Shown piece by piece: positions 9,005 through 20,592 of a DNA stretch of 20,592 bases. Under the pieces are notes generated by a model. It saw only the letters and a program-made list of their open reading frames with translations. It was not told where the DNA came from and did not search any database. The position numbers and the translations under genes were made by a program. This DNA is from Candidatus Hodarchaeota archaeon (GTDB lineage Archaea > Asgardarchaeota > Heimdallarchaeia > Hodarchaeales > Hodarchaeaceae). The stretch spans positions 1-20,592 of the forward strand of contig JAHQWW010000068.1 in the NCBI GenBank assembly GCA_029856365.1. Direction: 5' to 3'. Position 1 is the stretch's first letter. Every line of letters starts with the position of its first letter.

Positions 9005-9097
9005 GCGCTGATAGTCTAGTCTGGTTAGGACTCCAGCCTTCCATTCTCACTAAAGAGGAGATAGCTGGCTACCCGGGTTCAAATCCCGGTCGGCGCA
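9005..9097 (+). tRNA. tRNA-Gly(TCC) with 19-nt canonical 37/38 intron (9044-9062)
   Basis: Acceptor GCGCTGA/TCGGCGC-A, anticodon stem CCAGC/GCTGG, CT-TCC-A, T-arm CCGGG-TTCAAAT-CCCGG; BHB helix CTTC/GGAG with 3-nt bulges. Confidence 0.95.
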
Positions 9098-9117
9098 TCC
9101 AATTCTTGATGTTATTT

Positions 9118-10359
9118 TTATGAGGGTACATATCGTAAAATTGCACAAATTCCTCCGAAACTTTGAATCTGTCGTCCTTCTTCAGTTTGTGGATTGATTA
9201 TCTCGATGGTAGCACCTGTTTTCTCAGCTAAGTCTCCTAGTTCCATGATAAGATCTTTCTGAATAATTTCCCAATCATTAACCTTACACTGAGGACATTG
9301 TTGTTTTTGAAAAATGGATACATAATTCTCTACTTCTGTTGGTTTCAGTGTTTTTTCTTCCTTAAATCCACAGTTTTGACATTCACTTTTTATTCGAATT
9401 AAATCAATTCCCTTAGAAACTAATAGAACATCAACTGCTCCCATTAGAAGATTCTCACGAACCTCTTTCTCTCCATAATTAGCTTTTCCTTCCATTAAAG
9501 CATCTAAGAATTGATGAACCAATCGTTTTTCTTCTATAAGGATAACACCTTTTAAGATATCGTCGGATTCAGCCACAAGTTCGCTAATCCCACTTTTATC
9601 TCCTCCATATCCTAAATCTTTAATTCCCACTATTTTATCCTTCAATCTGATATCAAAATACTCAACAACTTGATCTTTTATTTGCCCTGGACCACCAATG
9701 ATCACCCCCTTTAATTCAAACTGAGCTTCCTCAATAAAAATCTGTTTCATATCGTCTGCGATCCGTTTTAGAAATCGTGCTACAGCTTCTTCACGTAATC
9801 TGGCAAAGCGGACGCTACTTTGACCTCCTTTGCGATGTTTTTTTGCAGCTCCACTTCGGGTACTCTTTACAATCTCAATTTGATCTCCTTTCAGAGTCGC
9901 TATTGTAGCTTTAGCACTATCGATAGCTAACAAAGCGTATGTATCTTTTTCAACTAAGCGGTCAATTAAATGGTCAACATGAAAGCGATTATCACATACG
10001 TATAACTTACGAGATATTGGATCTGGAGGCTCAAAAATATAAGATTCAATTTTATAGTCTTTATGACCAGAATCAGCAGTCGCTCCTGCAAAGATTGCTA
10101 TCCCTGATCCTGGTGATTTATGCCCATAGAGCTTGAGTTTTCCAATTACATTTCTTAACGCTGAAACGACATTCTTCTGGGTAAACTTACTACGAATATT
10201 AGTCGCGGTACCCACTTCATCTGTTAATTCTTGGACAAAATCAGCTATAGCTCTGTTTGGAGGCACATATAATGATATTAAACAAGTACTACCATCTGGA
10301 GATTCCTTTTTTTGCAAGTTAGTGAGCATTTTCTCAAATTTATACTGCTTATAGCTCAT
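9118..10359 (-). CDS. prf1: Peptide chain release factor aRF1 (eRF1 family)
   Basis: ISLYVPP, NIRS (NIKS variant), YVCDNRF, KHRKGGQSSVRFARLR, CxxC...CxxC minidomain and FGGICAILRY. Confidence 0.97.
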   Translation of the reverse strand: MSYKQYKFEKMLTNLQKKESPDGSTCLISLYVPPNRAIADFVQELTDEVGTATNIRSKFTQKNVVSALRNVIGKLKLYGHKSPGSGIAIFAGATADSGHKDYKIESYIFEPPDPISRKLYVCDNRFHVDHLIDRLVEKDTYALLAIDSAKATIATLKGDQIEIVKSTRSGAAKKHRKGGQSSVRFARLREEAVARFLKRIADDMKQIFIEEAQFELKGVIIGGPGQIKDQVVEYFDIRLKDKIVGIKDLGYGGDKSGISELVAESDDILKGVILIEEKRLVHQFLDALMEGKANYGEKEVRENLLMGAVDVLLVSKGIDLIRIKSECQNCGFKEEKTLKPTEVENYVSIFQKQQCPQCKVNDWEIIQKDLIMELGDLAEKTGATIEIINPQTEEGRQIQSFGGICAILRYVPS

Positions 10360-10434
10360 CCCACATCACGCGTATTGATCTTTAACAAATTCCTCCATAT
10401 TTCTTCTTTTAAATACTTAATAAAAAAACCCTAG

Positions 10435-11436
10435 TCAGACGATGATAGCTATATATTTGGGATAATTATTTATAAATTCCTTTATAGTCAGTTGTTGCCA
10501 ATCACAAACAGGTGAGTATTCTACAAAATCAATACTGAGAAGATGAGCAGAGCTTTTTCGGCATAATCGCACAATTTCTCTCAGAGTAGCAAAGATTTCC
10601 TCAGATTGCTTTTTTAAGCTGATTTTCTTGTTTTTTTCGAAAATTTCTATACTTGGGAAAAAATGCAAATATTTTCCTAACAAAAAAGGTGTGTTTGAAT
10701 GATGTTTCAAGTTTTGTTCTGTAAGCATTTGTTCTATATTCATCGAATGACCTATTATCTTGTTTCTATGCCAATAATTTGAATAACCTAAAAAAGTTGT
10801 TTGAGAAAGCTGAAAGTAATCCAAATCTAAACTAACATAAATCTTTTTACTTTTCAACCAGGAAAGAAATTCACGATTCGAGCTAATACCATTCATATCT
10901 GGCGCGAGATAAGCAAGAGAAGAATTAGCATCGACAAAATCGTAGCTTGTTTCAGCCCATCCTCCAATTACAGCAGTATTACTTGCTAATCTTTTATTAA
11001 TCCATGCTCCATCCATAAACTTAGAGTCGGATAAATCTAGGTGGGCATCGAGTGTAATAATACCGAATTCATCCTGGAACTTTTCTAAATAATCTAGTGC
11101 TATATAACGAGAAGGGGCATGAGAAGTAGCGATATTAATGATCTGGCGGTTATCCTCCCAATTCACCTCAGAAATATCCGTGAAACTCTTGGTACCTAAT
11201 ATTTTTTCATGAATAGAGCCCTTGATTAAATTATGGAATTTTTGAATGAAATATGGATCAATAAGACCAGTAAAATCAATGTATGGGTATTTCTTTTCTA
11301 ATTCTTGAATTCGAATAACAGTCCAATACTCTTCAGCCCAGAATAATGTTGTTCCATATGTCTGGGGTGGAATACAAAGAGGAAATCTGGTTGTAGTCTT
11401 TGAGTAACCATTAAAAAAGAGATTATTGATTATCAT
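10435..11436 (-). CDS. Divergent arginase/ureohydrolase-fold protein
   Basis: ITLDAHLD, IYVSLDLDYF and SIDFVEYSP motifs; canonical GGDH is absent. Confidence 0.7.
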   Translation of the reverse strand: MIINNLFFNGYSKTTTRFPLCIPPQTYGTTLFWAEEYWTVIRIQELEKKYPYIDFTGLIDPYFIQKFHNLIKGSIHEKILGTKSFTDISEVNWEDNRQIINIATSHAPSRYIALDYLEKFQDEFGIITLDAHLDLSDSKFMDGAWINKRLASNTAVIGGWAETSYDFVDANSSLAYLAPDMNGISSNREFLSWLKSKKIYVSLDLDYFQLSQTTFLGYSNYWHRNKIIGHSMNIEQMLTEQNLKHHSNTPFLLGKYLHFFPSIEIFEKNKKISLKKQSEEIFATLREIVRLCRKSSAHLLSIDFVEYSPVCDWQQLTIKEFINNYPKYIAIIV

Positions 11437-11443
11437 ATTCTTT

Positions 11444-12124
11444 TCATTGATTTTGAATTACTGTTCCAACAATTTTCCCATTGATTGCTTGCTTAATCTT
11501 ATCTACGTTTTTTTCTAACACAATAATTCGGATATTGGTACGTTCACATATTTTAGCAGCAATAAGAGTAAATGGAGCATTTGACCCTGCATTCAAAGAT
11601 AATGGGGATACAATTTCATAAAACTGATTATAAGTCAATTCACTATATTTTTTCGCATCAGAATATTGTTTTGGATCTTTATCATAAATTCCATCAACAT
11701 TCGTGACGTTTACAAGGATAGGAGAACCATATAAATCCGCTAGGATAGCTGCATCTTCATCTGTTTTAATAGCTGTTAAAAATCCACCAGATATACCAAT
11801 ATCATACGTCTGAAGATGTTCGGTTAATTTTTTCACAGTAGAAGGCAATACAGGTGAACAATGTCCTTTAAAATAGTAAGTTAGTAATTGGGCATTAAGC
11901 CAAGTTGCAGCAATACCCATATAATCCCGTTCACCTTCGGTCAGTCCATTAGGCAATCCCTTAATGTATTCTCGAGCAACCTTCCCACCACCACATACAA
12001 TCATAAATTTATATTTGTGAACCAGCTCTCTTATCGCGATGGAAAAATCTTCAAGGAACTTGCTATTAATATTACCAGGATTGATGACACTTCCTCCCAA
12101 AGACAGTGTAATTAGAGGTTTCAT
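11444..12124 (-). CDS. pyrH: Uridylate kinase
   Basis: SLGGSV, VCGGGKVAREY, DYMGIAATWLNA, TDEDAA and TNVDGIYDKDPK. Confidence 0.95.
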   Translation of the reverse strand: MKPLITLSLGGSVINPGNINSKFLEDFSIAIRELVHKYKFMIVCGGGKVAREYIKGLPNGLTEGERDYMGIAATWLNAQLLTYYFKGHCSPVLPSTVKKLTEHLQTYDIGISGGFLTAIKTDEDAAILADLYGSPILVNVTNVDGIYDKDPKQYSDAKKYSELTYNQFYEIVSPLSLNAGSNAPFTLIAAKICERTNIRIIVLEKNVDKIKQAINGKIVGTVIQNQ

Positions 12125-12295
12125 CTCTTAACTCTCCAGAATTTTAAATATGCTGTCCTTTTAATATTTTTATGTGATTACTTTCTTTTAAAAAAAGTAT
12201 CCCAACCACACTCCCTCAAGTATCTAGATTATTCTCTCGCTCCTCGTCGCGGGATGAGAAACCTAATGATTTTTTTCTATTAATGTATCAAAATA

Positions 12296-12454
12296 TGCCG
12301 AGGGTGCGATTTGAACGCACGACAACTGGATATCCATCACACAGGAGAATCTGGGACTTCAGTCCAGCGCTGACGGGAACCAATACCATCATAGGATGGC
12401 TATCCTCCCGGGTTTCTCATTTGCTCATGAGAGCAAACTCTAAGCTACCTCGGC
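12296..12454 (-). tRNA. tRNA-Phe(GAA) with three introns: 15/16 (12439-12413, 27 nt), 22/23 (12404-12372, 33 nt), 37/38 (12356-12332, 25 nt)
   Basis: Removing the three segments gives GCCGAGG TA GCTT AGCCCGGGA GAGC G CTGGA CT GAA GA TCCAG TTGTC GTGCG TTCAAAT CGCAC CCTCGGC A, a complete archaeal tRNA-Phe cloverleaf; each junction has a BHB-like helix. Confidence 0.88.
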
Positions 12455-12540
12455 AGGGGGAAATATGAAGTAATTTGATCTATACTGACAAGTGGTTAAA
12501 AATTTTTATATGTTTATTAAACGAGAAACTAAGATTGTAT

Positions 12541-12729
12541 CTAATCAATTCGACGACGCCGATTGAAATTTTTTTGTACCCAAGAATATCGTCTTAATTT
12601 TGGGTTTGGATATCCACAATAGGCACATTGATGTTTACGTTTATGGTAGGATCGATTTCCACATCTTCGGCATTGCATATGAGTTCGTTTAGCGGTGTGT
12701 TTTCCGCGTGCTGCTGTTCCTTTTGTCAT
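12541..12729 (-). CDS. rpl37e: 50S ribosomal protein L37e (eL37)
   Basis: MTKGT...THMQCRRCG..SYH....CAYCGYP..KLRRYSW zinc ribbon; directly downstream of Sm, a conserved archaeal gene pair. Confidence 0.97.
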   Translation of the reverse strand: MTKGTAARGKHTAKRTHMQCRRCGNRSYHKRKHQCAYCGYPNPKLRRYSWVQKNFNRRRRID

Positions 12730-12776
12730 TTTTCACAACTCGTTAATTAGTTGGTTCTAAAAAGAATTTACTATTT

Positions 12777-13016
12777 CTAGGGTGGAGAGATAAGGATCAC
12801 GTTGTCTCCTCGAAGGATGATATTTCCTAGTGTTTCAGTTACTACCTCTTGATCATTCTCTTCTTTTGGAGGGTAGATCATCTCTGCATCTTCTAGGTAT
12901 AAATTAAGATGTGGGTCGTAGCTGCGTAAGATCCCACGGATTTCACGACGCCCTCTAACTTTTAGGATTACTTTCTTGTTGAGAGCTGCTGTTAATACAT
13001 CTAAAGGTCTACTCAT
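12777..13016 (-). CDS. Sm-like archaeal protein (LSm/SmAP1)
   Basis: RPLDVL, Sm1 motif GILRSYDPHLNLYLEDAE and Sm2 motif LGNIILRGDNVILISP. Confidence 0.96.
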   Translation of the reverse strand: MSRPLDVLTAALNKKVILKVRGRREIRGILRSYDPHLNLYLEDAEMIYPPKEENDQEVVTETLGNIILRGDNVILISPP

Positions 13017-13060
13017 AATGAATCACTTTATTGTAAGGGAAGTATTATTATGAAAAGGAA

Positions 13061-13200
13061 TGCTCCGACCGGGATTTTCAGTTCACAAACATCCTGTTTG
13101 TCTCTTTTGAACCCGGGTCTTTCCGCTTGGGATCAACATCGAATTCAGCCAGATTCGGGGCGAAAGCCCGGAATGATGGGCCGAGCTACACTATCGGAGC
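13061..13200 (-). tRNA. tRNA-Glu(TTC) with two non-canonical introns: about 44/45 (13153-13120, 34 nt) and 59/60 (13105-13075, 31 nt)
   Basis: Acceptor GCTCCGA/TCGGAGC-A, D-arm GTGT..TCAT, CCGGG CT TTC GC CCCGA, variable AGAC, T-arm CCGGG TTCAAA|T CCCGG; T-loop intron has a perfect TTCA/TGAA helix. Register of the first intron is ambiguous by 1-2 nt within an A-run. Confidence 0.85.
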
Positions 13201-13410
13201 AAAACCTCACGAATTACCACGTTTATTGGCAATACAACCCCCCTTGCTTCAAATTAAAAAGCTTTGTTAATAGTATGGTAAATGGCGAAACAAGAGCTTT
13301 AAAAGTACCTTAGCAATTTTTATTTGGCTATTCAATAAATTAGAAATACTTAATTTTTTAGAAAAGCTTGTTTCGCTATTGCAGGGTCTGAAGATAAGGT
13401 GTTTAATAGT

Positions 13411-13773
13411 ATGGTTTCTCTACGTCATCGAAAAAAACAAAAAAGATCTTTAGAACGCCATGAAACCCAGTTATTAGCGCGAAACGCTGTAAAATTTCTA
13501 ATCGAAGAAAGCTTAAAATTCCGCTTAACAAACCCTCAAAGATCCCAAGAACTGTTTCATGCTGCCCAAAAAATCGGAAAAAGAGGACGATTTCATCTTC
13601 CACATAAATATCGCTTCTTATTTTGCTGGTATTGTCATTATCCATTAAGTATTGAAACAACAAAAATTCGTTTAAATAGCAAAAAGCATCAAATCCATTA
13701 TCTTTGTTTGAACTGTAAGAAGGAAAAACGATATGGTTATCTATATAGTAGAAAAAAAAAGATGGAGGAATAA
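13411..13773 (+). CDS. rnp4: Ribonuclease P protein component 4 (Rpp21/Rpr2 family)
   Basis: Helical N-terminus, KYRFLFCWYCHYPL and YLCLNCKKEKRYGY Zn ribbon; ATG 13411 preferred over GTG 13399. Confidence 0.88.
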   Translation: MVSLRHRKKQKRSLERHETQLLARNAVKFLIEESLKFRLTNPQRSQELFHAAQKIGKRGRFHLPHKYRFLFCWYCHYPLSIETTKIRLNSKKHQIHYLCLNCKKEKRYGYLYSRKKKMEE

Positions 13774-13775
13774 TT

Positions 13776-14102
13776 ATGTTTGTAGCGATTTATACGACTT
13801 TTGGCAGTCTAGATGAAGCAAAGGCCTTTGGACGTCTCTTGATTGAAAAAAAACTGGCAGCTTGTGTAAATTTAATTCATGACGTTCATTCAATCTATCG
13901 TTGGAAAGGGAAAATTGAAGAGACAACAGAAATAATTCTATGGGGCAAAACTCAAGATTTTTTGATTGAAAAGATCCAAGCTATGATCCAAGAGTCTCAT
14001 CCCTACGATTTACCAGCTTTAGTAGTTTATCCAATCCACTTTGGAAATGAGGCATATTTAAAATGGATATCTGAAGAGACCCAGGCTCTACACATCAACT
14101 GA
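13776..14102 (+). CDS. cutA: Divalent-cation tolerance protein CutA
   Basis: LIEKKLAACVN, SIYRWKGKIE, HPYDLP and YLKWI. Confidence 0.95.
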   Translation: MFVAIYTTFGSLDEAKAFGRLLIEKKLAACVNLIHDVHSIYRWKGKIEETTEIILWGKTQDFLIEKIQAMIQESHPYDLPALVVYPIHFGNEAYLKWISEETQALHIN

Positions 14103-15122
14103 AACCTTAAACCGATTATTAAGCTTTTCTGTGTGAATTTCAACTCCTAGTACTTCTTGAATCAACCTAATATTTGTTTTAGTATGATTAGACAAATAAG
14201 GCGTATAAAAAGTACTGGAATTGTGTGCTGTTGCCATGATCGGTAAAATTTGATCGGTTAAAAAAGGATCAACAGTACTTTGGCTGTTTAATGAAACGAT
14301 ATAGCGTTCGGAAGCTTTTTGACCGACTTTTTCAGCAGATAACTTAGGTTCGCCAACAAAATCCCCGCTTAATACACTATCTCCTATTCTTGAGAATATT
14401 AATACACCAGAACCTGGGTTATTAGCATTTACATATTCAATACTAATTTTTGATTCAATATCATTGTTTAATAAAGCTGTTGCGATTGTATCTGCTTGTC
14501 TTTCTGCGACCCGTGCTTTTTGAAGGTGTTTTGACGCAAATGATAGAATATAAACCAATTTTGGTTTTTGGAAAAATTCAAGATTCAATCCTTGTAAGAA
14601 CGAAGGCGAATGCATAACAGCTGACACGCTTGCTCCTCCCTTTGGATAAAAACCATGACGATGGATTTTTAGTGTAAGTCCAAAATTCATTTGACGAAAA
14701 ATCTCCCAAGTGACATGATTTACATAAGGAATACTGGGAGCCCATTTTCCAAATGTAGCTCCCCCCTGAAACTCTACTTTAAGGGTGTGATTCTTAACTC
14801 CAAGGACTGCCATCTGAAGAGACTGTAAAATCAGTCCTAAACTGCCCGCTGTGGAAACAGAAATCTGCAAATGTGATCTCCAGGAATTTGTAGGAATGAA
14901 AGAGATGGTTTCTGACCCGAGAAAATCTCCTTCTAATTCACCTCCACATAATTTAGCTAGTGACCGAACACCTACAAGATGTTGTGTTCGGAGTCCTGAT
15001 TTTGGTCTATTTTTTCGGATATTTACAATTTTAACAGGTTCTTGTGTTATGAGGGCAAGAGATGTCACTAATCGAAGAATAGATCCTCCTCCTTCTCCTA
15101 AACTTCCATCATAAACTTGCAA
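14088..15122 (-). CDS. rtcA: RNA 3'-terminal phosphate cyclase
   Basis: DGSLGEGGGSILR, NIRKNRPKSGLRTQHL, TAGSLGL, GFYPKGG, VAERQA, LTDQI and SNHTKTN (catalytic His present); TTG start. Confidence 0.95.
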   Translation of the reverse strand: MQVYDGSLGEGGGSILRLVTSLALITQEPVKIVNIRKNRPKSGLRTQHLVGVRSLAKLCGGELEGDFLGSETISFIPTNSWRSHLQISVSTAGSLGLILQSLQMAVLGVKNHTLKVEFQGGATFGKWAPSIPYVNHVTWEIFRQMNFGLTLKIHRHGFYPKGGASVSAVMHSPSFLQGLNLEFFQKPKLVYILSFASKHLQKARVAERQADTIATALLNNDIESKISIEYVNANNPGSGVLIFSRIGDSVLSGDFVGEPKLSAEKVGQKASERYIVSLNSQSTVDPFLTDQILPIMATAHNSSTFYTPYLSNHTKTNIRLIQEVLGVEIHTEKLNNRFKVSVDV

Positions 15123-15219
15123 ATTGAAACCTCAAATGAACTATATTAGTAGTCAATATGAGAACAAGAGAAGTGAAAAATAAATTATTATATAAGTTGC
15201 CTTTTTGCTAAAAAAAACG

Positions 15220-15381
15220 TTATCCTGCTCGTTCTTTTCGCTTAGGTCGTAGTCTCTTAGAGCGACATCGCCGACATTTTGTTGCACCTGGGGGATTTCG
15301 TGCATAGCATTTTCTACAAATCATCATATCAAGCAATACCTTACGAACAATGTCTCGTTTCTCAGGGTCAGTGATTGGCAT
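15220..15381 (-). CDS. rpl40e: 50S ribosomal protein L40e (eL40), 53 aa, not in the ORF track
   Basis: Manual translation: MPITDPEKRDIVRKVLLDMMICRKCYARNPPGATKCRRCRSKRLRPKRKERAG, the classic L40e Zn ribbon. Confidence 0.96.
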   Translation of the reverse strand: MPITDPEKRDIVRKVLLDMMICRKCYARNPPGATKCRRCRSKRLRPKRKERAG

Positions 15382-15547
15382 TGTATTGGCTTCCTTTTCT
15401 GTGATGAATTCTGTATTAAGATCTTTTTCTGTGTATCATCTATCACCAGATAATCAAAAAATAATTTCTGGAATTGGAGATGAAATGTGACTATTTCAAC
15501 GGAATTTACGTAAATTTAAATTCTTTCTTGTTAGTTAGAAGCCGAAT

Positions 15548-15890
15548 TTACAGGAGAAACATTAATATCAAAATTTTCTTTTGATCAATTTTCTAGATAA
15601 TTTAGAATAAACATAATTATATAGAAAACCAGTCACTGAAAATTTCAACGTATTAAAGGTCAGAATGATGATGACAAAACTATCTCATGGAAAAAAATAA
15701 TACATAGACTCACAATATTCAATTTTTTTTCTCCTACTAGTGGCACCAGCTTAATTTATTTGGAAAACACACCTCCATGTTTTTAATGTTATTGAGGTTT
15801 ATTATCCATGCTCTATCATTAATATAAGTATGTATATCTTTTAGCTAAGCTTTTTGGGAAGACCCCCCGCCCCCTCTATTTCGAATGCAG
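15548..15890. promoter_or_regulatory. Candidate replication origin: inverted ORB-like boxes flanking an AT-rich tract
   Basis: Minus strand 15890-15861 CTGCATTCGAAATAGAGGGGGCGGGGGGTC (ORB core plus G-string); plus strand 15548-15560 TTACAGGAGAAAC (mini-ORB-like). Confidence 0.4.
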
Positions 15891-16039
15891 AAAACGAGAA
15901 ATAACGACAAAAATGGTGAATAATTCTAAATCGCAACCTAATTTGTGATTAATTATCACTGTACTATTTCCAGAAAACATTAATAAGGGAGAAAAAACCA
16001 AAGAAAACGTGAAGTAAAAATTTCACATGGTGAAATCCA

Positions 16040-16327
16040 ATGCAATATTACATGAGTGTATCAGAGATCCAAAATCGTGTTAAAACTTTGATTAACCATT
16101 TCACTGGAAGTTACAATGTAAAATCACCTTTTTTTAATCCAAGGTTAGTAAAATCTCTCCAAAAGATGGTGGATCCTAATCTTTTAAACAATGAAAAGGT
16201 AGCGGACGAAATTATAAGCACTTTTTTGAACGCAATCATTTTAGCTGGACAATTGGGCATTGATATCGAAACAAAGGTGAATGAATACCTTATACAGCTT
16301 GAAAGAGAAGCTATCTTTGCTATGTAA
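16040..16327 (+). CDS. Small MazG-like (all-alpha NTP pyrophosphohydrolase fold) protein, apparently degenerate
   Basis: MSVSEIQNRV N-terminus and EKVADEIISTFLNAIILAGQLGIDIETKV resemble the MazG ELAD...LAN.LGIDLE helix; EExxE motif is missing. Start may be ATG 16052. Confidence 0.5.
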   Translation: MQYYMSVSEIQNRVKTLINHFTGSYNVKSPFFNPRLVKSLQKMVDPNLLNNEKVADEIISTFLNAIILAGQLGIDIETKVNEYLIQLEREAIFAM

Positions 16328-16388
16328 GTTTTACAGCTGATTTTTTGATTATTAAGTCATTTTGTTTTGTAAAAAAATCATTGAAATC

Positions 16389-17492
16389 TTAAGCAAAAAG
16401 GTTGACGATTGAATCCAATGTTGAGACACCTAAAAGCAAGCAGCTTAGAATGCCCAAAACTAGACACCCTAGTCCACCAAAAATCGGGAGGGGAAGACCA
16501 GGTAAAGCACGATCTTTTTTCAATAATCTAAAAGTATAATACGCACCTACAAAGAGTCCAATGAGTGATGTAATTAGGGGAATTGGAGTAGCCAATTTAA
16601 TTCCTATCACTACCGCAGCACTGATCAACATACTGAAAAAGGCAAAATCCCCAAGTCCTATGTTTATTAAAGGAGTAGAATAGACAGGAAGCGCAGGTAA
16701 CAAGGGTACTTTCTCATATTCCACTTCATTTTGAAAATCCATGCTTTCTTCGAATTGATTAGCAGTTTCACGGCCATGTTCAATAATTCCTTTTAGTGGA
16801 CCACGAAACACAGCATAAATGTCATACAATGATAAACCTACTAAGATAAAAAGAGTAGTAAGTAAACCAAGATGTATAGCCAACATCGAACCAATCATTG
16901 CGCCAAAAAATATCATCATCAGATTTCGGAGCCAAATCTTATCAAAACTCTGAATTCCAAATGAAAATATACCAAGTAAACCTAAGAGGATAGCAAAAAT
17001 GTACAACAGAATTTCAATCACGAAAATCTGTTGTGTCCCGATTGTTACACGCCACTCGAAAGAATGATTAATCCAATTCTGAATGAATAAAGGAAGAATA
17101 GTCCATGACAAGTTTAAAACTTCAATTAGAACAACAGCTCCATAGAATAAACCAAAAACAAACCAGCTAAATCCCATCATCGCTGCAAAGAAATAAACTA
17201 AAAGTTGCATGAATCCTTTCTTTATTATAACCAGAACTATCAATCCTCCAATAAATGCCAATGTAACATAAAAAAGCATATTTAGAGTTGCTCCCAAGGC
17301 GATTCCACCTGGATCCTCTGGATTTTCAGGAATTGGGGAAATATCTGGAATTTCTGTGTTTGCCAATGCATAATAATCAAGTGTGAATAAGGATAAAATA
17401 ATTGCAATCAGGAGTACAAAAACTATAGGCTGTATAAACGCCTGTAACTTTGCTTCGCGGGGTTCGTGTTTTTCAGTTAAACTTTCACTCAT
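16389..17492 (-). CDS. Presenilin-family GxGD intramembrane aspartyl protease
   Basis: LSLYDIYAVFRGPLK (YD), IGLGDFAFFSML (GxGD), ALPGLPLPI (PAL-like) and about nine TM helices. Confidence 0.93.
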   Translation of the reverse strand: MSESLTEKHEPREAKLQAFIQPIVFVLLIAIILSLFTLDYYALANTEIPDISPIPENPEDPGGIALGATLNMLFYVTLAFIGGLIVLVIIKKGFMQLLVYFFAAMMGFSWFVFGLFYGAVVLIEVLNLSWTILPLFIQNWINHSFEWRVTIGTQQIFVIEILLYIFAILLGLLGIFSFGIQSFDKIWLRNLMMIFFGAMIGSMLAIHLGLLTTLFILVGLSLYDIYAVFRGPLKGIIEHGRETANQFEESMDFQNEVEYEKVPLLPALPVYSTPLINIGLGDFAFFSMLISAAVVIGIKLATPIPLITSLIGLFVGAYYTFRLLKKDRALPGLPLPIFGGLGCLVLGILSCLLLGVSTLDSIVNLFA

Positions 17493-17559
17493 TTGCTTTC
17501 ACGAAAGACGCGAACATAAAGTGAAAATAAAAATACTGGAACGAGAACTATACAACCAA

Positions 17560-18561
17560 ATGAGATATCTCGAAAATCTAGGAGAATCTAATGTTATCAA
17601 TCTCCTACAAGTATATATTGACTCTTCTGACCTTCTTGGGACTAATGAAGACGCTTATCTTTATAACAATATCCTTCCTTATATTCTTGTTAATGTTGAC
17701 ACAATGTCTAGGGATTCTGATTTTCTACCACAGCAGACATGGAGACAACTTGGAGCAAAGTTAGTAACCATAACTTTTTCTGACCTAGTAGCAAAAGGGG
17801 CAACACCCGACTTATTCATATCCTCTTTGGTCTTAGAGAGTTTAATGAGAGAAGATGAACTCATAGAATTAGTCTCGGCAATCCAAAAAACAAGTCATGA
17901 ATATGGTGCAAGATACCTAGGAGGCGACTTAGGCACTTCGACCGAAACAGTTTTGACAGGAGTAGGACTGGGTTCCATCAAAAAAGGAACTATTTTAACT
18001 AGACGAAACGCGAAGAATGGAGATCTTGTCTGTGTTACGGGGTATTTTGGATTGACTTCTATAGGATTAGACTATCTATTATCTCCAATAAATAGAAAAT
18101 ATGATAAAATCCCAGATGAACTTCTTGAACTAAGCACAGCACTGCTTTATGAACCACGACTTAGACTTACGGAGGGTGTGTTACTGGGAAAACATAATTT
18201 AGCAACTTCCTCAATTGATAGTTCCGATGGATTAGCTATTTCATTGCACTGGCTATCACAAGCTTCAAATATTGGTATTGTCGTGTATAATCTCCCTATC
18301 CATCCAGAGTTGGAACCATTTCTAGAGTCATTTGATAAAATTCAGGAGATTACGATGTTTGGTGGTGAAGAATATGAGCTAATCTTTACTGTTGCCCCTT
18401 CTAAATTAGAGCAGTTAAAAAGCATTTTCAGGAAGAATGACAGCCAGTTCTTCGTTATTGGTGAATGTATCGATTCTAAAGGTGTTTTTATTTCTCAAAA
18501 AGAAGTGTTAATACCCGTACCTATGAGAGGATGGGATACTTTTCGAAAGAAAGTACATTGA
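17560..18561 (+). CDS. thiL: Thiamine-monophosphate kinase
   Basis: LGESNVI, SDLVAKGATP, GGDL, RRNAKNGDLVCVTG, IDSSDGL and GGEEYELIFTV; real start placed at ATG 17560 to avoid overlap with presenilin. Confidence 0.93.
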   Translation: MRYLENLGESNVINLLQVYIDSSDLLGTNEDAYLYNNILPYILVNVDTMSRDSDFLPQQTWRQLGAKLVTITFSDLVAKGATPDLFISSLVLESLMREDELIELVSAIQKTSHEYGARYLGGDLGTSTETVLTGVGLGSIKKGTILTRRNAKNGDLVCVTGYFGLTSIGLDYLLSPINRKYDKIPDELLELSTALLYEPRLRLTEGVLLGKHNLATSSIDSSDGLAISLHWLSQASNIGIVVYNLPIHPELEPFLESFDKIQEITMFGGEEYELIFTVAPSKLEQLKSIFRKNDSQFFVIGECIDSKGVFISQKEVLIPVPMRGWDTFRKKVH

Positions 18562-18615
18562 AAGGTTAATAATAAAATGACTTAAAAATTGATGAATTAA
18601 TTATGAAAGACGAAA

Positions 18616-18688
18616 TGCGCCGACCGGGATTTGAACCCAGGTCACCTGTGTGGCAGACAGGAGTCTTACCAGGCTGGACTATCGGCGC
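18616..18688 (-). tRNA. tRNA-Gly(GCC), intronless
   Basis: GCGCCGA TA GTCC AGCCTGGTA AGAC T CCTGT CT GCC AC ACAGG TGAC CTGGG TTCAAAT CCCGG TCGGCGC A. Confidence 0.96.
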
Positions 18689-18905
18689 TTGATATAATTT
18701 TCCCTTAAAACTGATTCATGTTGAAATATTCTTCGATAAAAGGCTCTATTAGGGAAGAAGTTGCACTTTAATACCGTTTTCCTTCTTTTCATTAATTTTT
18801 TCATTGATTACTTTAGTGAGAGGAAATTAATCTATTAAATAAATAATCATGTTTCTTGACTTAGATACTTTATAATCATGATTATGACATATTCCAAATT
18901 TAAAT

Positions 18906-19700
18906 TTAGTCACTTGGTTCCATTTTATTCTGAAGATTAAGATTGATCCATTTCAATACTCCCATCAGCGTAGTCAGCTCGCGTCCTGTAACATATCCTC
19001 GGGAGAGAATATTGGAAAACGCCTGTACAGCTATATGATATTTTTCAGGGTGGTATTTCGTGGTTTCTATTAATTGTTCAAAGTAATTCAATAATAATTG
19101 TCGTTCTTTGTAAGAAGCAACACGAAATTTTGGTTTAACTTTAGAATCAGGATGATTAATCTCTTGAAACTTTTGAGAAAGAAAGTAGAGTATAATCGCG
19201 ACTGCATGTGATATATTCATAACAGGATAGGACATGTGTGTTGGAATATTAACCAGTAGATCACACAATTCGATTTCCTCATTAGATAAGCCATATTGTT
19301 CTCTCCCAAAAACAATTGCTAGCTTACTGCAATCAAATTCTTCTCTCAATAGTTGCTCTGGAGGAATTGCAACTCTTTTTAGGTTGTAATCGCTTCCTAT
19401 TCGAGCCGTGGTACCAATCACAAACTTAAAATCTTCACGAATATCCTGAAGCTTCGAAATTAACAGCGCTTGATTAATTATAATTTCAGCACGACGAGCT
19501 ACAATCTTAATCTTTGGATCAGATAAATCAAGACGAGGATTAACAATGATAAGGTCTGAAAAACCGAAATTCATCATCGCACGAGCAATATTACCTAAGT
19601 TTTGAGGTTTACTTGGTTCCACCAAAATTACAGACAAAAAATCCTGGCTTTTCCTTTTCTTTGACTTAGTAGAGCTATAATTATTGTTCACTCCAATCAT
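18906..19700 (-). CDS. trmJ: SPOUT-class tRNA (C32/U32) 2'-O-methyltransferase, TrmJ family
   Basis: VILVEPSKPQNLGNIARAMMNFG, IGTTAR, VFGREQYGLSNEEIELCD and YPVMNISHAV. Confidence 0.93.
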   Translation of the reverse strand: MIGVNNNYSSTKSKKRKSQDFLSVILVEPSKPQNLGNIARAMMNFGFSDLIIVNPRLDLSDPKIKIVARRAEIIINQALLISKLQDIREDFKFVIGTTARIGSDYNLKRVAIPPEQLLREEFDCSKLAIVFGREQYGLSNEEIELCDLLVNIPTHMSYPVMNISHAVAIILYFLSQKFQEINHPDSKVKPKFRVASYKERQLLLNYFEQLIETTKYHPEKYHIAVQAFSNILSRGYVTGRELTTLMGVLKWINLNLQNKMEPSD

Positions 19701-19981
19701 CTCAATACTAAACCGACTCTTCAGTATCCAATTGTGAGTAGGATGAAGTCATACTCGCTATTTGAGGGGGATAACATGAATACAAGGGTTAATACTACTC
19801 CAAGAATTTGGGACAAGTAGATATGGCTCAAATATATAATATCAGCTCATTTCAAGGTAGTGCATTCTCTTTTAAAGAACTTAAAGCTTCAACTACTCAA
19901 AGTCACTCCTTAAAAAAGATAAAAATTGATAATCATAATGCTAATCTTGCCTCCTAGGCGGCATTACTACACCTCTAGAAT

Positions 19982-20140
19982 GCGGGGGTAGCCAAGCCAG
20001 GTCAAAGGCGGCATTTATTGGGCTAGATGATAGCTTAGCATATCATAATAGCGCCGTCCAAAGGCGCTGGACTTAAGATCGCTTTTCGATAAGCAATCCA
20101 GTCATATAGATGTACGTGGGTTCAAATCCCATCCCCCGCA
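19982..20140 (+). tRNA. tRNA-Leu(TAA) with two introns: 21/22 (20006-20061, 56 nt) and 37/38 (20078-20095, 18 nt)
   Basis: Spliced form GCGGGGG TA GCC AAGCCAGGTCAAA GGC G CTGGA CT TAA GA TCCAG TCATATAGATGTAC GTGGG TTCAAAT CCCAT CCCCCGC A; anticodon intron has a perfect BHB (CTTA/TAAG); D-loop intron helix GGTC/GTCC with AAA bulges. Confidence 0.92.
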
Positions 20141-20162
20141 TATTCCATCATGAAAAGAAATA

Positions 20163-20592
20163 CTACACACTTTTTTCTCTCTCTCCAATCAAATAAGTTG
20201 GACCAGCATCTGTTACGTGTATTTTCAAAACTTGACCTATTGAAAGCTTCTCACCCTCGATTAATACTGGTAAATATGATGTATTTCTACCAATAAATTG
20301 ATCGGTATATTTTCCATAATCATAAATTAAGATTATTCCCTCCCACCCAATCCATTTTCTCAGCTCTCTCCTAGCAATGTCGCGAGTGAGTTCAGTTAAT
20401 TCTCTACTTCGACTAGCTTTTATTTTTGTTGGAATCTTAGGAGAAAGTTGTGAGGCTAAAGTTCCAGGACGATCTGTGTATTTAGAAATATTTACAATAG
20501 TAGGACTTACTTCTCGCAGAAGTTGTTTTGTTGCTTCGTAATCTTTTTGAGATTCTCCAGGAAAACCAACCATTATATCAGTTGCTAATACT
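20163..20592 (-). CDS. MiaB-like radical-SAM tRNA methylthiotransferase (probably e-MtaB/CDKAL1 type), C-terminal part with TRAM domain; 5' end outside window
   Basis: LATDIMVGFPGES, VNISKYTDRPGT, KASRSREL and GRNTSYLPV; frame open to the window edge. Confidence 0.88.
   Translation of the reverse strand, partial: VLATDIMVGFPGESQKDYEATKQLLREVSPTIVNISKYTDRPGTLASQLSPKIPTKIKASRSRELTELTRDIARRELRKWIGWEGIILIYDYGKYTDQFIGRNTSYLPVLIEGEKLSIGQVLKIHVTDAGPTYLIGEREKSV

Follow-up and report, generated by a model that had tools for sequence, protein, structure and literature searches.

The window analysed here, a stretch of 20,592 nt corresponding to contig C79 of the archaeal assembly G000, encodes five tRNA genes, four of which are interrupted by a total of eight introns: three in tRNA-Phe(GAA), two each in tRNA-Glu(TTC) and tRNA-Leu(TAA), one in tRNA-Gly(TCC) and none in tRNA-Gly(GCC). 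All four interrupted genes are single-copy, and the evidence below makes it very probable that they are working tRNA genes carrying ordinary archaeal bulge-helix-bulge (BHB) introns. An earlier reading of this DNA from the letters alone (the sequence-only reading) had proposed eight introns in four of the five tRNAs, five of them at non-canonical sites, and junction analysis confirmed both the counts and the sites. Comparison with relatives argues strongly that the introns are real and functional; they are also ordinary for Asgard archaea. The core result is therefore a corrected annotation of a known Asgard trait, with three essential tRNAs that standard tools miss or miscall. What goes beyond the known trait is a conversion signal between two tRNA-Glu genes and a conserved core in the long tRNA-Leu intron. 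The finding adds little on the origin of eukaryotic tRNA splicing.

ARAGORN called the spliced products as Gly(tcc), Phe(gaa), Glu(ttc) and Leu(taa), with lengths of 74, 74, 75 and 85 nt, respectively, each folding into a complete cloverleaf with a normal anticodon loop. At the exact junctions, a central helix between two 3-nt bulges comprises all four pairs in four introns and three of four in the others. Only two junctions possess the full motif with its flanking helices (hBHBh′) and two more combine four central pairs with offset flanking helices, in line with the relaxed motifs (three of four pairs, or no outer helix) that had been read from the sequence. Dinucleotide-shuffled introns matched the central helix at rates of 0.005–0.20 each and ~5e-10 for all eight jointly (product): a single motif is weak evidence for an intron, and the strength comes jointly from the eight.

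Boundaries were compared with orthologues from ~20 genomes of the same genus (G-numbers other than G000 denote these relatives). The Phe 15/16 central helix reaches four pairs in 4 of 13 alleles, the interior of the Phe 22/23 intron ranges from 19 to 33 nt across 18 alleles around a constant central helix, and the Glu 44/45 intron keeps the identical three central pairs in 9 of 9 alleles. Placement of this last intron at 37/38 was ruled out by the intronless G005 allele. The mature tRNA-Glu(TTC) (window 13061–13200) has a C27–A43 mismatch in its anticodon stem, which the intronless G005 allele shares. We also noticed that 10 nt in the Leu leader (window 19956–19965) repeat the beginning of the Leu intron, and that the Phe trailer, downstream of 12296, has a 10-nt antisense match to the first Phe intron; neither is kept even in the closest relatives, and both were treated as chance.

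Table 1. Features of the window: tRNA genes with their introns, elements inside the long Leu intron, and neighbouring genes.
Feature	Position	Strand	Description	Support or distribution
tRNA-Gly(TCC) gene	9005..9097	+	one intron	Rfam 54 bits; profile scan; ARAGORN on spliced product
Gly-TCC intron 37/38	9044..9062	+	19 nt; full hBHBh′ motif	kept in 7/7 related eRF1 loci
tRNA-Phe(GAA) gene	12296..12454	-	three introns; 8-nt micro-exon at 12405-12412	profile scan; junction analysis; ARAGORN on spliced product
Phe intron 15/16	12413..12439	-	27 nt; 3/4 central pairs; 8-bp intron helix	missing at exact site in G001, G005, G010, G016
Phe intron 22/23	12372..12404	-	33 nt; 4/4 central pairs; flanking helices offset	4/4 pairs in 18/18 alleles
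Phe intron 37/38	12332..12356	-	25 nt; weak 3/4 central helix	missing in G005
tRNA-Glu(TTC) gene	13061..13200	-	two non-canonical introns	profile scan; junction analysis; ARAGORN on spliced product
Glu intron 44/45	13120..13153	-	34 nt; 3/4 central pairs	boundary set by intronless G005 allele
Glu intron 59/60	13075..13105	-	31 nt; hBH motif	near-identical copy in tRNA-Glu(CTC), contig C24; missing in G002, G003, G013, G018
tRNA-Gly(GCC) gene	18616..18688	-	intronless	default ARAGORN; Rfam
tRNA-Leu(TAA) gene	19982..20140	+	two insertions	profile scan; junction analysis; ARAGORN on spliced product
Leu intron 21/22	20006..20061	+	56 nt; 3/4 central pairs; 4-bp intron helix	register from 20 alleles
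Leu intron 37/38	20078..20095	+	18 nt; full hBHBh′ motif	4/4 pairs in 17/18 alleles; missing in G004, G032
Conserved motif GGGCTAGA in Leu intron 21/22	20020..20027	+		exact in 19/20 alleles; GGGCTA in 20/20
Candidate nested inner intron (hypothetical)	20027..20057	+	31 nt	only register passing in 20/20 alleles
Sm protein with eL37	12544-13016			
RNase P subunit Rpp21	13399-13773			
RNA cyclase RtcA	14088-15122			
Stand-alone eL40	15220-15381			
Presenilin-family gene	16389-17492			weak Pfam match
TrmJ-family methylase	18906-19700			
Radical-SAM/TRAM gene	within 12544-20592		cut by window end	

Across the genus, exons are nearly invariant and the tRNA loci adjoin the same genes, while introns drift but keep their central-helix bases. 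For five of the eight introns (Phe 15/16, Phe 37/38, Glu 44/45, Glu 59/60 and Leu 37/38), some same-genus orthologues lack the intron, exact to the base; for the remaining three, the intronless homologues are sister-family or paralogous genes. Conversely, relatives hold introns absent from G000, e.g. at 59/60 in Phe and in Leu. Phe 22/23 and Leu 21/22 show genus-wide fixation. In the sister family, neither D-arm intron is present in Phe, and Glu-TTC has no intron at 44/45 or 59/60. Paired loci were seen in two relatives, namely two tRNA-Tyr-like loci 2.5 kb apart in G007 (L144, L157) and two Phe-like loci in G012 (L019, L039), possibly integrated elements or split assemblies.

That the interrupted genes might be pseudogenes or scars of mobile elements, with the working tRNAs encoded elsewhere, would fit an incomplete assembly and the failure of default tools to call three of the window genes. 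Yet pseudogenes would hardly keep nearly invariant exons at loci held beside the same genes throughout the genus, with introns that vary and still retain their pairing bases. The profile scan found no intronless copy of the four interrupted anticodons in G000, nor of Phe and Leu-TAA in three relatives that are 96–99% complete, so that the intact second copies which the sequence-only reading had named as grounds for refutation did not turn up. We regard this alternative as extremely improbable. Two points weigh against the reading as working single-copy genes with ordinary introns: the assembly is 83.6% complete (with 4.2% contamination), and the single-intron model leaves an invariant motif of the Leu intron, taken up below, without explanation.

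The same comparison bears on whether the non-canonical introns date from the archaeal ancestor of eukaryotes, with only the 37/38 site retained later on the eukaryotic side. Hodarchaeales have been proposed as one sister group of eukaryotes (PMC10307638), and the genus-wide fixation of Phe 22/23 and Leu 21/22 would agree with such an origin. However, most sites are polymorphic within the genus, unrelated sequences occupy one and the same site, the sister family lacks the Phe D-arm and both Glu-TTC introns, a census of 90 Asgard genomes found many recent, independent gains (bioRxiv 10.64898/2026.10.13.758758), and the placement of eukaryotes is itself disputed (PMC12222021). We consider an ancient origin very improbable. 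The suggestion in the sequence-only reading that these genes would illuminate the origin of eukaryotic tRNA splicing is thereby weakened, because the introns turn over, most of them being gained or lost within one genus; a looped Asgard splicing endonuclease had, moreover, been reported earlier (PMC5829648). What the window does provide is an extension of the documented cases to Hodarchaeales. Cultured strains of this order exist (bioRxiv 10.1101/2025.02.26.640444), and splicing is therefore testable there.

Detection relied on a profile scan of the genome contigs that tolerates several long insertions, with the reversed genome as a decoy. It recovered all five window genes with scores of 52–87, against a decoy maximum of 26.2. 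By comparison, default ARAGORN called one of the five and Rfam two; ARAGORN with intron search called three, mislabelling Leu-TAA as tRNA-Pro, and at low threshold returned only noise. The expectation that standard pipelines may overlook such genes was thus well founded. The tRNA-Pro call was rejected, as the true anticodon arm of the Leu gene is intact; an alternative assignment as tRNA-Trp(CCA), via a hairpin at the intron 3′ end, was discarded for the same reason and because the hairpin loop lacks U33 in half of the alleles.

The assembly (4.24 Mb, 35% G+C) contains no assembled 16S rRNA, and the host was placed through its proteins. The window eRF1 shares 85–93% identity with proteins of “Heimdallarchaeota bin6”, “bin76” and other genomes, one entry bearing the conflicting label Hermodarchaeota. 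Among the nearest homologues of the catalytic subunit of the splicing endonuclease EndA, those named to order belong to ‘Candidatus Hodarchaeales archaeon’ (79–82%) and ‘Ca. Hodarchaeum mangrovi’ (77%). From these we infer a member of Hodarchaeales, the rank being based on protein names and the genus name being tentative; the earlier guess of a probable Asgard genome agrees with this placement.

Two EndA paralogues are encoded in G000, on contigs C38 and C152. The catalytic alpha subunit (183 residues) matches its Aeropyrum counterpart (E 4e-41) in an alignment free of gaps across the Crenarchaea-specific loop (CSL, or L1); its K39 corresponds to the loop lysine K44 of Aeropyrum, and Y121, H129 and K160 form the catalytic triad. 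All four residues are invariant in 49 of 49 close homologues. The beta subunit (210 residues) is structural and lacks the catalytic His and Lys. The endonuclease check proposed by the sequence-only reading accordingly yielded one paralogue with a Tyr-His-Lys triad and a loop insert with its conserved lysine, and the loop alignment together with K39 predicts the broad-specificity enzyme it had anticipated. RtcB is intact.

We infer from comparison and known biochemistry that the introns are spliced in the cell. The 3′ end of each intron pairs with four (or three) exon bases between two 3-base bulges; a two-plus-two EndA would cut strict and relaxed motifs alike, and RtcB would join the exons. 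Folding of the BHB in Phe and Glu would require that the D-arm or the anticodon stem open or stay unformed, making removal stepwise. Such a permissive EndA may render introns nearly neutral, and hence free to be gained and lost within the genus. At least for Glu 59/60, gene conversion across identical 3′ exons could have spread the intron between isoacceptor genes and kept it uniform.

The Glu-TTC 59/60 intron has its sole copy elsewhere in G000 at the same site of Glu-CTC, with 2 differences in 31 positions; for the other seven window introns, no genuine copy was found elsewhere in the genome. In eight of the nine genomes with the intron in both genes, the TTC intron is closer to the CTC partner of its own genome (1–4 differences) than to any orthologue (5–17). 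For the seven genomes carrying the 31-nt intron family, the mean within-genome TTC–CTC distance is 2.4 vs. 9.1 between orthologues, and of 5040 permutations only the true pairing reaches the minimum. In G005, both genes carry at 59/60 a 29-nt intron of unrelated sequence, with 1 difference between the two. The site is occupied in TTC only in G001, G004, G009 and G012, and in CTC only in G002, G003 and G013. As the copies differ and the pattern recurs in independently assembled genomes, repeat collapse is unlikely, and the pattern points to gene conversion between the isoacceptor genes, which are separated by ~12 kb in most genomes and by 114 kb in G015. Two observations pull the other way: G010 shows no conversion, and the permutation test counts related genomes as independent, rendering its P value optimistic. 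The Glu pair would offer a measurable route of intron spread or loss and bears on how introns arrive, accounting for their copying rather than their birth. In G001 (L093, L030), the anticodon stem and the flanks of the 44/45-region intron are common to the two Glu genes, which suggests a longer conversion tract in that lineage. The 59/60 intron in tRNA-Asp of G002 and G013 (L085, L088) resembles the 31-nt Glu family known from other genomes, as a possible cross-isotype copy or a shared stereotype.

At twice the usual length, the 21/22 intron of tRNA-Leu(TAA) stands out. Its register is fixed by the variation of the first and last intron bases among 20 alleles, in which the exon bases do not vary. 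The conserved motif GGGCTAGA falls in the part that the single-intron fold leaves unpaired. The ends of the intron form an 8-nt direct repeat that is perfect in some alleles only; it was rejected as a target-site duplication, for which it is poor evidence because pairing constraints produce it. An intron-encoded box C/D or H/ACA guide found no backing, with neither conserved boxes in the 20 alleles nor an Rfam match, and genome searches for a trans-acting box C/D guide that would target this motif or the anticodon loops of Leu and Met returned nothing convincing.

Two explanations of the motif were weighed. The insertion may be a single intron whose motifs pair in cis with the D-arm (8–12 or 14–17, and 23–27), and the alternative fold so held could set the timing of splicing or make a base accessible to a modifying enzyme. 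Given the 20 alleles, RNAalifold chooses the D-arm-paired fold. Conserved modules with a function are also found in further long introns of G000, namely a box C/D guide in Trp and a K-loop resembling a guide in Tyr, and the Met intron likewise retains a complement of exon 23–28. On the other hand, the pairing displays no compensatory change, as the exon side is invariant; K-turn, C, D and ACA boxes are absent, and the genome offers no convincing trans guide or target. Cis-pairing is thus a serious possibility, if somewhat short of probable. Alternatively, the 56 nt might comprise two nested introns, a 31-nt inner one being cut first to create the junction of a 25-nt outer one, which would raise the window count to nine. 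Nesting would account for every invariant base of GGGCTAG, and the inner lengths (28–35 nt) match the common intron size here. Its register is also the sole passing one in G008, where the single-intron helix has two of four pairs, and one variant base in G031 preserves the predicted pair. However, no allele without the inner part was found in 399 Asgard genomes or in JGI metagenomes; the single-intron helix is no worse, being fully paired (four of four) in 10 of 20 alleles and having more Watson-Crick pairs (66 vs. 56 and 38); and 1–16 registers per allele pass by chance. Leu-TAG, moreover, has a similarly built intron of 50–52 nt without the motif, and the Met intron contains a similar motif pair too close together for an intron. 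Nesting therefore appears doubtful. If true, a tRNA intron would itself have been invaded by a second one, fixed across a Hodarchaeales genus and in need of ordered splicing, and nesting and isoacceptor conversion would constitute two concrete routes of intron gain beyond those tested by the current census. A limited literature search found no relevant report of nested archaeal tRNA introns.

Beyond the window, scan and hand curation yielded ~41 tRNA genes, 28 of them with introns, and ~42 introns, about half of them non-canonical; three of these genes scored low and were included manually on the strength of their stems, and tRNA-Ser(TGA) is cut by a contig end. The load is thus ~1.0 intron per gene vs. 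1.6 in the window. Genes for His, Asn, Leu-GAG and Ser-CGA tRNAs were not found in this census, and those for Asp, Lys-TTT and elongator Met lie, in relatives, just past the point where contig C24 ends. Four tRNA-Gln genes with different bodies (two CTG, two TTG; contigs C142, C32 and C81) reflect either real duplication or contamination.

Several other genes carry long or multiple introns. tRNA-Trp(CCA) (L136, contig C65:18792–18990) has three (18/19, 37/38 and 45/46), and its 63-nt 37/38 intron contains a box C/D guide, nearly invariant in 8 alleles, with antisense elements for positions 34 and 39, resembling the guide known from Haloferax. tRNA-Tyr(GTA) (L133, contig C96:58292–58426) harbours a 60-nt 37/38 intron with a K-loop hairpin. 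Among Tyr alleles (53–60 nt), the K-loop flanks base-pair with 30–34 as well as with G37 and the beginning of the intron, so that U35 and A36 stay unpaired. Hodarchaeales and two further Asgard families show this architecture, accompanied by compensatory changes, counting only rows with the full architecture, as the phylum-wide pattern is loose and mostly noise. The intron looks like a built-in self-guide for pseudouridine 35, a site for which PMC2651775 describes separate guide RNAs only; genes for both Cbf5 and TruD/Pus7 are present in the genome. tRNA-Met(CAT), missing from G000 beyond the C24 end, has up to four introns in genus loci (L074, L075, L081 and others), and its 37/38 intron (50–63 nt) keeps three motifs in 16 alleles: ATCTGAGA, AGGGC and the complement of exon 23–28. 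The truncated tRNA-Ser(TGA) (L135, contig C65:22224–22436) shows four apparent introns, of which the 48-nt one near 8/9 contains a perfect 19-nt hBHBh′ motif and is a second nesting candidate. Within the window itself, positions 12544–20592 form an RNA-processing neighbourhood (Table 1).

Intron-rich tRNA sets were known from Asgard archaea before. Introns occur in 92–95% of the tRNA genes of three Asgard genomes, many at non-canonical sites (PMC11291895), and the 90-genome census (bioRxiv 10.64898/2026.10.13.758758) reports that annotators miss 30% of insertions in its focal families, that two-subunit EndA is widespread and that no general arrival route was found, stating that splicing of the new insertions in a cell was not yet shown. 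The high density noted by the sequence-only reading is thus real in the window, but as a novelty it does not stand. Like the genomes of that census, the one studied here has several introns in single genes, D-arm and T-loop insertion sites, relaxed motifs, genes overlooked by annotators, two EndA paralogues and recent gains; in contrast, its genome-wide load lies near the 0.91 introns per gene of non-focal families and well under the 2.2 of focal ones, i.e. it is ordinary. The census text does not name Hodarchaeales, scores sharing only for families that span two isotypes, and mentions neither conversion nor nesting. As for the enzyme, looped (alpha-beta)2 EndA cuts relaxed motifs, and Asgard archaea possess such enzymes (Kaneta 2018, PMC5829648); the Hodarchaeales protein, predicted to be of this kind, shares loop length, loop lysine and catalytic triad with the known forms (PDB 3AJV, 3P1Z). 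Thermoproteales, as far as PMC4090602 relays the original studies (Sugahara 2008; Fujishima 2010), likewise combine non-canonical sites, up to three introns per gene and a CSL-bearing (alpha-beta)2 EndA, and their introns transpose and are common to many isotypes. Here, only one of eight window introns has a copy, in the same isotype and at the same site, falling short of what transposition calls for; a single copy at the same site of an isoacceptor gene fits homologous conversion instead. A parallel is intergenic conversion among yeast isodecoder tRNA genes (PMC4090602), in which copies within one genome are made alike, introns included, whereas the present case would be archaeal and involve two single-copy genes with different anticodons.

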